NCBI GenBank assembly: GCA_964016885.1
Contig: OZ024747.1
Span: 6,386,001 to 6,450,000 of the forward strand
Direction: 5' to 3'
DNA: 64,000 nucleotides
From: Eledone cirrhosa
Lineage: Eukaryota
Under the pieces are notes generated by a model. That model was not told the DNA's origin. It did not search any database and was given only the letters and a program-made list of their open reading frames with translations. A program made the position numbers and the translations under genes. Every line of letters begins with the position of its first letter. Within the stretch, counting starts at the first letter, position 1. Of this stretch, positions 20,289 through 58,227 are shown piece by piece.

Positions 20289-20382
20289 CTTTCTATATTA
20301 AATATTTATACTCTGCTTTGTATTGAGTACCTTACTTACTGTGGTTACCCCCGATTGAACCCGGGATAAACTTATATATATA

Positions 20383-20562
20383 TGAAAAGATTCAGGACCC
20401 CGACGGCTGAGCTCCGGCCGTTTCGGATCTAGCTGTCGAAACGACCGGAGCTCAGCCGTCGGGGTCCTGAATCTTTTCCTATTACCCACTCTACTACGCC
20501 AAGTATCGAGTACTTTGACACGTTATGGTCCACCTGGTATCTTACCACACCTTCTCTGTTCT
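20383..20562 (+). mobile_element. Family 2 fold-back element
   Basis: Palindrome GAAAAGATTCAGGACCCCGACGG...CCGTCGGGGTCCTGAATCTTTTC plus the shared 3' tail. Confidence 0.75.
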
Positions 20563-21122
20563 ATAATATATATATATATATATATATATATATATATATA
20601 TATATATATATATTCTTTATTCTTTATCATTAATATTGATATAAAAAATATATATCTTTTCAAAGAGCCTCAAGTTTCATATATCTTAGGGCATCAGAAG
20701 GTGAAAGTCCGGCCTACGTAGGGCCAGACTTTCCCCATGGGTCCCCCTCGCATAGTCATGTACGCCTTCTACAAATCATTTCTACTAATAGTTTCATAAG
20801 GTGACGGACCTAGTTTTTGACACTTCTTGCTCTGAGCACAGTAAAATAACAATACATGTATAATTACTAAGCCTGCATGTTCTACTAATCAGTCCACATC
20901 CGCCCACGCCAAATCATGTGATAGGCCATAACACAATACAGCCCTCTTCGCCACATTCGTTATTTCCACAAGGCTGTCACGTGGCAAATGTGTTTAGGGA
21001 TTTATTTACTGATCGAAGGAAATTATATAATTAAATTAGATTAATATTTATACAAATCCATTAGCATGGCTAGTCTAATAAGTAAACATTACAACAATAC
21101 AACGGGGGGTAACATTATAGTA

Positions 21123-21162
21123 TCACTGATGATGTCACAGGTGTGTGACGAAAGAACTCTGA
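21123..21162 (+). ncRNA. Minimal hammerhead motif (GTCACA/TGTGAC stem II family)
   Basis: TCA CTGATGA t GTCACA ggtg TGTGAC GAAA G aa C TC TGA. Confidence 0.65.
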
Positions 21163-22433
21163 AATTATATATATATATATATATATATATTTAACTGTTG
21201 GTCAATCAATGATAAACATTGATTGCCAGGTAAATTAAATATAGGGATATAAAATATACGGAATCTAAAACCAACCCAAACCAAACAGTGAGTGTGTTTT
21301 ATTATATATTTCTGGCAATATTATAACAACATGACCTTCCCAAAATCTAACAATGTATATATATGTATATATATATATATATTCACGCGCACAAATACAC
21401 ACACACACACACACACATATATATATATATATATATATATATATATATATATATATATATATATATATAGAGAGAGAGAGAGAGAGAGAGAGAGAGAGAG
21501 AGAGAGAGAGAGAGAGAGAGAGAGAGAGAGAGAATAGAAATGGCTGTGTAGTTGCTATTTAAGGTATCTTAAAATGCAGTGGGAATACGAAGAAAGCAAG
21601 AACGTGGGGGGGTTGGTCCTCATCAGTTGTCTACTGGGGGTTTCGGATATTTCTACGCTTTAAAGACAAGATATCTCACCCGAGGGCGTCAATAACTGGA
21701 TAAGTTATTGGGAAAACGGAGGAAGGAGGGAAGGAAAGCAAAAGAGAAGAAAAGAGAAAACAGTAAAGAAAACAGCGAAAAAAACCCAACAAACCGAGCA
21801 ATGTGTGATCAACTTAAGGTAAGGAAATCCAAGACAACTCGATAAGAGAACTTAAGTTCAAGACTGAGTGGTCGAGAGAAAAAAAACACACGTCTGATCC
21901 CCGCAGTTGTAAGTGAGAAAAGAACTGCTATATATACATATATATATGTATGTATATAATTGTTTCTACTTTAGGCACAAGGCCAACAATTACCCAGTGC
22001 ATTACTGGTACTTTATTTTATCGACACCGTAAGGATGAAAGGCAAAGTTAACCTCGTATAATGCATTATAAATTGTTAATGTATGTGTGCAGGTTCGTGT
22101 GTACGCATGTACACGTATATTTTTGTGTGTGTATGTGAGAGACATAATATCAGCTCTTTCACTTTTTCCACCAAACATATTTGTTGATGGTAATTGATTA
22201 AAGTAGATCCCACGACTGATGGAGAGAACAGGAAACCATTTTTAGTAGCGGGAGTCGGCGTCAGAGGGATCAATGACGTCGGTGCTGGGAGCATGGGGGT
22301 CTCTGAACTGTTGACCCCTCAATTAAAAGGCTACACTGCCCTATATTCAACAAATCTATCTTTCTATTTCCTACATAAAATAAATGTAGGAATATCATTT
22401 CTAACATTCTGAAGCATCGTCATTATTGAGTTC

Positions 22434-22620
22434 GGATTGGAAGTATCGGTAGAGGGTCGGATACCATGCTTTGAGGCATAGAGTTACGGTCCTTTATGAT
22501 CTGAGTTCAAATCCCGCCGAGGTTAACTTTGCCTTTCATCCTTACGGGGTCGATAACATAAAGTACCAGTAATACACTGGGGTTAATTGCTGGCCTTGTG
22601 CCAAAAGTAGAAACAATTAT
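22434..22620 (+). mobile_element. SINE family A with TSD
   Basis: 12-bp TSD ATTATTGAGTTC (22422-22433, 22616-22627) overlapping the ATT tail. Confidence 0.9.
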
Positions 22621-56436: not shown

Positions 56437-56481
56437 AGTCATAGTCCTTTCGTCACACACTCTGTGACCTCTTCAGTGACT
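56437..56481 (-). ncRNA. Hammerhead motif, GTCACA family (left arm)
   Basis: AGTCA CTGAAGA g GTCACA gagtg TGTGAC GAAA G ga C TA TGACT. Confidence 0.75.
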
Positions 56482-56592
56482 GGGGATTCCTTTCCTTTGT
56501 TTCTGTGCCTTTCCTTTCTTCTATCCTACGCCATTTTGTTTTGGCGTAGGATAGAAGAAAGGAAAGGCACAGAAACAAAGAAAGGAATCCCC

Positions 56593-56637
56593 AGTCACTG
56601 AAGAGGTCACAGAGTGTGTGACGAAAGGACTATGACT
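56593..56637 (+). ncRNA. Hammerhead motif, GTCACA family (right arm)
   Basis: AGTCA CTGAAGA g GTCACA gagtg TGTGAC GAAA G ga C TA TGACT. Confidence 0.75.
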
Positions 56638-58059
56638 ATATATAAACAACTATCTGGTTGTGGAACCAACCAACCAACCAGAAATTTATAAGTTTGTAAA
56701 TTTATAAACTTAAAAATTTATAAATATATAATAAATTGAAGTGAAAGCAACTGGTGCGTGTGTTTCCTATTGGCAACATGACCCTCCCAAAGTATAACAA
56801 TATCGGTTTCAACACACGATTTCAGATAAAGAATCTTGCTAAACAAATTCGGAAACGAAATATATATATATATATATATGTATGCATATATGTATGTGTG
56901 TGTGTATGTGTGTGAAGTACATGTGCACTTATAACTTTGTACAGTCAACTATTTGTTTATGTGTATGTAATACCTGTCTTTCTAACTTAATTTTAATGTC
57001 AACCAATCTTGGGACCGCCCAAGAGAAAAACTATCAGATAGTTGTATTACAGGAAAAGCAGCTTTCTTTTGACGAATAATATGACTTTTTCACTCCACTT
57101 ACTGACCAGAACAAACAATACAATTGCTACGAACAAGAGAACATGGAAAAAGTTCTGTTTTATAGAAAGATGTTTGTTTGGTTAAATGGTAGCCATTTTA
57201 TTTTTTTCATTTTGTCATCAATTTAGTAGTAAGGCCATAGTTTCGATAGAAGATAATACACCTACTTCAAAATTAGTACATTATACTTCTACATACCTAT
57301 AGGACTACAGGGCCACTAATGTACTTAAAAGCACTGGGAAAATTTGAAAAGTGGACAGAAAAATAGTTTACACTATTTTCTTCACTACTATTTATAGCGA
57401 TCAACTGGTGTCGTGGTCATTTGCGCTGGGGCGCACACGTTTCATATATACATATATATATATGTGTGTGTATTCAAGTATATATTCTTATCCCATACAC
57501 AGTAATTGAGAGAAAGACGGGAGAAAATAATTCCATACGTTATATATATATATATATATATATAGAATTAGTATATCTACCAACATATGCGTACAGATGT
57601 ACACTAATGCTAGCAAATACATAAGTTATGTCATAGTACCTAGGTGCTTCAATGCAGGAGGATGCAGAACAATTATATGAAAGACGTAAAATAAGAAATT
57701 TTAGTAAGTTAATTTTTAATTTTTTTTTTAATTTTCTTATTTTACGTCTTTCATATATATATATATATATATATATATATATTTAATATAGAAATGGCTT
57801 CTACAGGACTATATGGTATTTATATATTTTCTGGTGGTAGGAGAGGGTGGTGATTGGGATGGGTGGAGGTCATTGGTTGATGGATTTAAAGAAAGGGGGT
57901 TCTTTAAAACCTATATTTAGAGAAATAATATATATATATATATATATATATATTATATATATATATATATTATATATTATATATATATATATATATATAT
58001 ATATATATATATATATATATATATATATATATATATATATATAAGTATAATGGACATTA

Positions 58060-58097
58060 CGAGCTGAGGATCCGCTAGGGTGAAACAATTGATCTCG
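58060..58097 (+). ncRNA. Hammerhead motif, AATT family (U16.1A lesion)
   Basis: CGAG CTGAGGA tCCgctagGGt GAAA C AATT G AT CTCG. Confidence 0.6.
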
Positions 58098-58227
58098 GTA
58101 TGGTGAACTAACTGTTGTGTAACCACTTTAACCTAACTCGTTCCATGGACTGAGTGCTTTACCACTACGGATATTACCTTCCAGTGTTCTACCAATATAT
58201 ATATATATATATATATATATATATATA

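Follow-up and report, generated by a model that had tools for sequence, protein, structure and literature searches.

A bulged hairpin beside the insertion ends of Hydra-type Penelope-like elements in Eledone cirrhosa

The choice of the reverse-transcription start in Penelope-like elements (PLEs), whose reverse transcriptases (RTs) are the sister group of telomerase, and the inverted arms with an optional tail that their insertions display have been a long-standing question since these elements were described. In the anole Poseidon element PAc, RT starts in vitro at two internal sites that are also the genomic tail ends, near a stem-loop 3' of the hammerhead; downstream RNA (the first 172 nt of the open reading frame, ORF) is required, the hammerhead is dispensable and a protein dimer is predicted (PMC11167929). 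PLEs of the Hydra clade are characterized by an RWK-like motif, DKT and a CxCx5C linker (PMC8557442), and the one-sided tail of PLE insertions is already known (PMC8557442, Fig. 2 legend; PMC3846280). Here we analyse a stretch of 64,000 nt from Eledone cirrhosa (contig OZ024747.1, positions 6,386,001 to 6,450,000, forward strand), called the window throughout, in which a bulged hairpin had been predicted to recur downstream of hammerhead ribozymes; genome-wide counts refer to the 3.0-Gb assembly (GCA_964016885.1). The hairpin is real, conserved and specific to Hydra-type PLEs, and it is very probably tied to the choice of the reverse-transcription start. As judged from sequence, it is probably an RNA docking site for the element's RT, copying starting ~6 bases upstream of the stem.

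A conserved hairpin and its host elements

Below, the letters A to J, E3 and P2 denote hairpin or element families and L-numbers (e.g. L331) genome loci extracted for analysis. On re-reading the window, the six hairpins of the original prediction proved exact in sequence and coordinates (Table 1). The strict motif (ACTC, an upper stem of at least 3 bp, a 3' bulge of U or UN, GAGT) has 16 matches in the window, against a mean of 0.55 and a maximum of 3 in 100 block dinucleotide shuffles, and the pattern ACTCN{11,17}TCGAGTRCTT matches the genome 4312 times (97 for its reversed control). A total of 400 kb sampled at even steps contains 34 strict motifs, whereas 15 control closing stems give 0-9 matches each and a mirror motif with a 5' bulge gives 7. 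Three of these 34 are a chance match lying antisense in the ORF of Neptune-type PLEs, and a 39-member cluster (ACTC TGGTAT..ATACCA t GAGT) was left out because it is a chance match of this kind. The lower stem is not invariant as had been claimed, since GCTC/GAGC families exist, one of them (family J) in the window, and a TCTC/GAGA form probably also occurs. The consensus thus reads N-CUC-[variable upper stem]-U(N)-GAG-N'-RC, with a domain of 55-80 nt sometimes inserted for the loop.

The MAFFT alignment of one representative for each of 15 families or sites has a lower stem of 4 bp and an upper stem of 3 bp with a bulge on the 3' side, and 104 of its 105 cells are paired, with 26 double changes compared with 7.6 after shuffling (none of 500 shuffles was equally high). 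RNAalifold folded the alignment identically, its covariation term being -2.1. The sense strand holds six G-U and no A-C cells, although this count and the alignment itself, drawn with a motif that permits G-U and demands an upper stem, are to that extent a point against the reading proposed here. The test was therefore repeated on a set defined without regard to the upper stem, and 11 of 20 repeated families were found to have one (3.7 expected, maximum 10 in 2000 shuffles). That the upper stem covaries fully, as first stated, is right across families but too strong, in view of the G-U pairs and of some second copies that nearly lack an upper stem. Among copies, 0.7-3.8% of positions vary in the lower stem, 5-21% in loops and 3-10% in flanks, the lower stem being the less variable in all five profiles. 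In raw reads, variants of family B hairpin 1 above 10% are confined to the loop and the second bulge base, and hairpin 2 of this family shows three changes in other organisms, all in the loop. An Rfam scan returned no informative family: the 150 best of 383 matches were all below the gathering score, almost all of them microRNA models placed on inverted or simple repeats.

Four of the six families first noticed trace to Hydra-type PLE ORFs: family A (20.3 kb) via L348 and L350, family B (20.5 kb) to an intact ORF of 715 aa in 3.53-kb tandem units (L331), family C (33.7 kb) via L202 and L225 and family F (58 kb) via L004, L010 and L238; family I, of the GCTC form, does so via L102. A single ORF with RT and, at its C-terminus, a GIY-YIG endonuclease is present in B (where it is intact), C, F and P2, the last a family found by its RT, independently of the hairpin motif. 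Only the RT half was observed for A and only the endonuclease for I; no ORF was recovered for D, E, G and J, and the loci extracted yielded no parent of D, E, E3 or G. An RWK-like motif (RLRWR, RIRWR, RIRWK or RLRWI) and SDKT, with DKT in place of DKG, occur in A, B, C and P2, while in F RLRWR is present and an intact DKT was not observed. The CxCx5C linker is CNCPDRSIC in B, CNCPVRTKC in C, CSCRIKSEC in I, CSCRKPEAC in F and CNCRYPNAC in P2, whereas the Neptune-type control protein has CX2-5CxxC instead. No CCHH motif was noticed in the endonuclease when the B, C and F translations were read by eye, and a Pfam search of the family B ORF and the family I fragment returned no family. By the RWK-like motif, DKT and the CxCx5C linker, the parents that were found would belong to the Hydra clade. 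Their proteins are 36-52% identical among themselves and have no BLASTP match to the Neptune-type protein, so that the families are not 'otherwise unrelated' as had been supposed.

Units reach ~3.5 kb and tails 60-180 nt, and 82 of 101 hairpins are followed within 28-95 nt by (TA)n or (CA)n (18.9% at random). At L330 and L331 (contig C1, 91.47 Mb and 437.2 Mb), four or more near-identical units of 3.53 kb, with open ORFs of 715 aa, stand in tandem; to judge from them, family B has probably been active recently. No RNA dataset was among those listed as containing family B sequence. The leader and ORF start of this family are partly present in sequencing runs labelled with 14 organism codes, mostly at small shares. 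Families G (L024; window 62360) and J (L019; window 41129) are present as non-coding tandem units of ~615 bp with both hairpins, which look like non-autonomous derivatives mobilised in trans.

The Neptune-type family served as a control. It is very abundant (29,051 candidates) and has a hammerhead and a 60-nt tail, but the RCTC/GAGY hairpin was not found in it (28 of 30 loci fully displayed; true read-through at L076), ruling out that the hairpin accompanies every hammerhead family. The sole Neptune copy followed by a hairpin (L092) is read as a separate insertion because the true read-through enters different sequence. Of the proposal that a shared cis-acting RNA signal, such as an RT binding or priming site, is used by many families, the shared signal is supported, most likely one for RT binding or priming, but its use is restricted to one clade. 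In the Neptune template (L076, minus strand; window 56785-56860), ATATCG and then a TATC/GATA stem follow both ends; of the two stems, the first is weak (-0.7 kcal/mol), and the second, which folds at -7.7 kcal/mol, has a 3' bulge of 2 nt. These stems may be another clade's start signal.

The hairpin extends to other phyla. Among the Hydra consensuses of File S7 of PMC8557442, read by eye, those of a coral (Hydra-2_Amil) and a sea cucumber (Hydra-2_Ajap) have a clear GCTC/GAGC hairpin 3' of the hammerhead, and Hydra-1_Ajap has one at nt 3, a second ~60 nt on and its end ~40 nt after the hammerhead, a layout expected under the docking model if the unit is cut at the short site (see below). Six 9-mers from the 3' strand of the hairpin give seven matches in the 584-kb supplement of that paper, of which four are hairpins in the small Hydra file and three, in the Naiad and Chlamys files, have no such stem in the context displayed. 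The 21 Repbase Hydra families are visible only as 20-nt hammerhead flanks.

Insertion ends and the second hairpin

When the 3' ends of copies were mapped, families A, B, C, E, E3, F and I each showed two of them, a short end just 5' of the hairpin and a long end at 36-76 nt on its 3' side, and very few copies ended anywhere between. The 67 ends of family B comprise 26 short, 37 long and four others, and none inside the hairpin. In family G, 0 of 12 ends were short at first, and 21-22 of the first 100 genome matches, judged by eye, end at the short site. The hairpin begins ~2-11 nt past the insertion end, the last matching base being at -5 (B1), -3 (B2), -6 (C2), -6 to -7 (F1) or -2 (E2) relative to it; these offsets rest on the last-matching column and on junction reading, the earliest-TA column being shifted by the allowed mismatch. 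An offset of ~6 bases suits most sites, allowing for the TA ambiguity of junctions, with exceptions in C1, which needs at least 7, and G2, at least 10. Raw DNA reads of family B show the same arrangement, with loose (TA)n ends, 3444 reads at L331:786 and 8895 at 866, and hairpins at L331:792 and 870, just past these junctions. Contigs of three other organisms have both ends in two cases and the 866 end alone in the third.

Every copy end lies on a template TA/AT able to pair with (TA)n. This would also suit a stop or barrier, in which the protein loads elsewhere, the primer anneals at UA/AU and the hairpin merely frees the bases 5' of it or blocks alternative sites, an explanation to which the weakness of the hairpins and an offset that varies over ~2-11 nt lend some support. 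The CUC/GAG core, the U bulge and the RC 3' flank are, however, kept across the divergent parent proteins and across phyla, and many other TA steps in these AT-rich repeats go unused, so that we think a barrier unlikely and favour docking of the RT on the hairpin.

Since each family has two ends and one of them has a hairpin, a second hairpin was predicted past the long end in read-through copies. In family B it was found 6 bases past that end (GCTC CTAC tccc GTAG ta GAGC AC), with 427 matches compared with 0 for the control. Elements have two hairpins, separated by 60-180 nt, both placed after the hammerhead and ahead of the next unit's start codon. Folding supports six of the ten second or blind sites looked at, namely B2, C2 (p 0.56), I2 (p 0.81), G2 (p 0.57-0.89) and both P2 ends (p 0.97 and 0.91); one is weak, one a variant and two are unsupported, and several have the 55-80-nt domain instead of a loop. 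What is new here is that each insertion end has its own hairpin, the position of which is fixed relative to the copy ends taken as RT start sites, with F2, D2, G2 and A2 as exceptions.

The two ends are combined in a regular manner in head-to-head insertions. Over all loci, a count partly biased by locus choice, we found 50 long+short, 4 long+long and no short+short inverted pairs (10 pairs of other classes set aside), and in 1.064 Mb chosen by position there were 19, 2 and 0, respectively (3 set aside).

A third possibility is that the signal is read on DNA, the GIY-YIG endonuclease or a protein dimer recognising, in the element repeat, an extruded hairpin or the near-palindromic sequence GAG-YR-CTY and the fixed ends representing nicking or second-strand resolution rather than RT docking. 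In its favour, recognition by the Drosophila Penelope endonuclease is reported to have depended on the tail, and a dimer is predicted (PMC11167929); GAGYRC conservation reaches beyond the stem, and antisense and sense strands fold about equally well. Nevertheless, the upper stem covaries freely and tolerates sense-strand G-U, and whole 55-80-nt domains are inserted in the loop. Furthermore, hairpin 2 lies outside nearly all inserted copies (in family B, read depth falls from ~10,000 to ~20 beyond L331:866) and must therefore act on the template, not the product. Recognition at the DNA level is thus rather unlikely, and the RNA docking site is preferred here too.

The hammerhead and other features of the window

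The hammerhead was the landmark by which the hairpin had been described. Between predicted cut and hairpin there are 26 (cut 20283), 27 (20460), 42 (58093), 52 (33684) and 27 bases (the 39.5-kb copy), so that the distances first given (about 27, 28, 28, 43 and 53 nt) are right when counted to the first hairpin base; the copy at 40059 has no hammerhead in the window, and that of family E lies ~55-60 nt upstream. The predicted enrichment 3' of hammerheads was also borne out, with at least 10 of 101 hairpins having an intact cut within 80 nt upstream (a lower bound, the hammerhead descriptor being strict and ad hoc), compared with ~0.3% expected and 0 of 101 in the control direction. The cut distance varies from 25 to ~60 nt, however, whereas the distance to the insertion end is ~2-11 nt, and the reference point of the hairpin is therefore the insertion end and not the cut. 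Most copies in the window extend 5' beyond the cut (starts at -46 to -85, cuts at -26/-27 in A and B), and their template was therefore uncut or re-ligated. Under the docking model, the hammerhead would be a mere neighbour in the same terminal repeat.

The layout of the family A hammerhead is that of the Hydra hammerheads in File S2 of PMC8557442, while that of family B is a U3-A8 variant as named in PMC4209133, which explains why it had been taken for a half-hammerhead. In L331 (679-770) the latter combines the U3-A8 core with a stem II that is long and with a stem III loop that is palindromic, TGAGCTCA, and suited to cleavage as a dimer.

The hairpin could instead be an accessory of the hammerhead (a tertiary partner, a folding aid or a duplicated relic of stem III) or a translation signal of the 5' untranslated region. 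The ~30-fold enrichment 3' of cuts and the presence of both hairpins in the 5' leader of the ORF would be in line with this, as would five Hydra hammerheads (File S2 of PMC8557442) that have actc-n-gagt as stem III, and hammerhead stem III and the hairpin's lower stem may have a common origin. The hairpin itself is not stem III, for no GAA precedes the stem in any of 15 representatives and four of the 15 are closed by G-C, the GCTC/GAGC forms lacking the A-U pair that stem III needs. The variable cut distance, Neptune hammerheads that have no hairpin and family G, which has hairpin and short end without a canonical hammerhead or ORF, are further points against it. Neither role accounts for the match to both insertion ends, and a role of this sort appears quite improbable. 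The hairpin as RT docking site is thus retained in what follows.

Table 1. Hairpins, hammerheads and related features in the window (hairpin 1 is the hairpin next to the short end)
Feature	Position	Strand	Remarks
Minimal type I hammerhead, family A	20241-20287	+	Predicted cut after 20283, 26 nt before hairpin; core read from sequence
Hairpin 1, family A: ACTC TGC ttt GTA tt GAGT AC	20310-20328	+	Parent Hydra-type PLE ORF (L348, L350)
Inverted arm of family A insertion	20167-20225	-	Stops at short site, ~4-8 nt before expected start of hairpin 1
Remaining tail of family A copy	20329-20372	+	Reaches long end, joined to (TA)n
Further family A hairpins	1387-1405; 5097-5115; 33450-33468; 33275-33293	+; +; -; +	Last one decayed
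Family B hammerhead, U3-A8 variant		+	Predicted cut after 20460; 5'-truncated in this copy
Hairpin 1, family B: ACTC TACT acgcca AGTA tc GAGT AC	20488-20511	+	
Further family B hairpins	41446-41469; 47569-47592; 12067-12090; 11720-11743; 1208-1232	+; +; -; -; +	Last one decayed
Hammerhead, family C	33622-33692	+	Predicted cut after 33684
Hairpin 1, family C: ACTC CAGT cctacaa ACTG ta GAGT GC	33737-33761	+	Parents L202, L222, L225; long end near 33818
Further family C hairpin	41624-41648	-	
Hairpin 1, family D	39538-39557	-	Upstream hammerhead core at 39622, cleavage triplet mutated; parent not found
Hairpin 1, family E	40059-40079	+	No hammerhead in copy; inverted short arm 40021-40055; parent not found
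Hammerhead, family F	58059-58097	+	Predicted cut after 58093
Hairpin 1, family F: ACTC GTTC cat GGAC t GAGT GC	58136-58155	+	Parents L004, L010, L238, L247; long end 58194
Hairpin 1, family F sister copy (GTCC/GGAC)	33900-33919	-	
Hairpin 1, family G	62360-62379	-	Non-coding unit ~615 bp, tandem in L024; no canonical hammerhead
Hairpin, family J: GCTC TGATTC atat GAATCA tc GAGC GC	41129-41154	+	GCTC/GAGC form, missed in the original prediction
Neptune-type PLE 3' end (negative control)	56598-56860	+	Hammerhead and tail, no RCTC/GAGY hairpin
Further Neptune-type hammerhead cores	56476; 44607	-; -	

Insertions of different families are stacked in shared (TA)n tracts (11854-12332, 20115-20613, 33200-34040 and 41040-42036), each newcomer sitting in the TA flank of the previous one. 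The family D copy on the minus strand runs ~130 nt beyond its long end (39390-39520) and is followed by an (ACC)n tract, with no ORF after it. The window also contains homogeneous minisatellites at 28403-29218 (28 bp period), 30229-31089 (15 bp) and 32439-33006 (48 bp).

The proposed start signal and known systems

In the proposed mechanism the 3' ends of copies would be RT start sites, for which PAc provides an in vitro precedent (PMC11167929). The hairpin would act on the sense RNA and bind the RT, which would start ~6 bases 5' of it, at a UA/AU pairing with nicked (TA)n. Two RT protomers, one per hairpin, might prime from the two nicked target strands, and use of both starts on one RNA would yield the inverted pair of one long and one short arm; hairpin 1 would pass into the tail of the arm primed at hairpin 2, and hairpin 2 itself would survive only in read-through tandem copies. 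This complete scheme, i.e. double target-primed reverse transcription from one RNA by a dimer on two tandem clade-specific hairpins, with one start per nicked strand giving a one-tailed head-to-head insertion and the Neptune TATC/GATA stems as another clade's version, is offered tentatively, and we give it somewhat less than even credence.

Several observations weigh against the docking reading. The Neptune family makes the same long+short pairs (5/5) without the hairpin, and the motif is therefore no general requirement. Among six published Hydra consensuses, Hydra-1_Crog has a degenerate hairpin, Hydra-1_Amil a weak one and Hydra-1_Obim none (PMC8557442). The second sites are uneven: the upper stem of C2, which is seen in read-through copies, is 1 bp; J2 is weak (p 0.20); G2 lies at least 10 nt from the insertion end; a strict second hairpin was not found for family A (three unrelated matches), a relaxed search giving a bulge-less GCAC/GTGC variant at the right distance; and long-range hairpins for F2 and D2 are unsupported, the F pairing costing ~6.8 kcal/mol and that of D, between TCTC starting at 39504 and GAGA ending at 39435 in a window copy that reads through the long end, having p 0.07. 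Stem-breaking variants of family B (G812A and G807T) occur in other organisms, and its two hairpins are able to cross-pair (p 0.38-0.88). Taken singly, the six window hairpins have -2.5 to -6.0 kcal/mol (z -0.16 to -2.61), most folding no better than shuffles and about as well in antisense, so that the case rests on conservation and not on energy.

The sole in vitro study put the protein-binding signal within 172 nt, which the present finding narrows to a 20-nt candidate. The positional rule has been checked on insertion ends in ~10 families, and L331 offers an intact element for mutagenesis. The hairpin is also a marker for Hydra-type and non-autonomous families and for true consensus ends. 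As for its novelty, the remark in the original prediction that the motif was not recognised as a described one agrees with the literature searched: no description of the hairpin was found in the available parts of PMC8557442, PMC11167929, PMC4209133, PMC3846280, PMC7229834, PMC6962438 and bioRxiv 10.64898/2026.07.22.740005, with the proviso that supplementary figures (S1B and S2C of PMC11167929; those of PMC8557442), preprint supplements, subscription papers or Repbase notes could contain one.

With the Hydra-clade PLEs that carry an endonuclease, the elements described here share GIY-YIG, an RWK-like motif, DKT, CxCx5C, the hammerhead, (TA)n targeting, the one-sided tail and the inverted truncated copy; what is available of that account covers hammerhead and tail and not the hairpin, although the latter is visible in its consensus sequences (PMC8557442). 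PAc resembles them in having two internal starts that bound the tail, a stem-loop near the starts and a need for downstream RNA (PMC11167929). The differences are that here a covarying CUC/GAG bulged hairpin, common across families and phyla, lies just 3' of each start and that the start has UA/AU microhomology to (TA)n.

More distant parallels exist among other RTs. The 3' stem-loops of LINEs and SINEs and the 3' untranslated region of R2 recruit RT for target-primed reverse transcription; their place is 5' of the start site, and they are copied. These and the hairpin, as proposed here, would all be small structured RNAs whose recognition by the element's RT permits priming at a nicked target. 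The hairpin differs in its position 3' of an internal start, in that copying from the site it marks does not include it, and in its doubling. In hepadnaviruses, epsilon is a bulged stem-loop with protein priming at its 5' bulge, and in telomerase RNA, elements flank the template; the likeness is one of topology, a lower stem, a bulge and an upper stem setting the RT start, and no such RNA family appeared among the 150 best Rfam matches. If the double-priming scheme is true, the hairpin would be a portable 20-nt signal that programs the start of a telomerase-related RT inside an RNA. Given the sister relationship of the two enzymes, a start signal on the 3' side would bear on the origin of template boundaries. 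Compared with the known stem-loops that recruit RTs, a position 3' of internal starts and a doubled signal are unusual.

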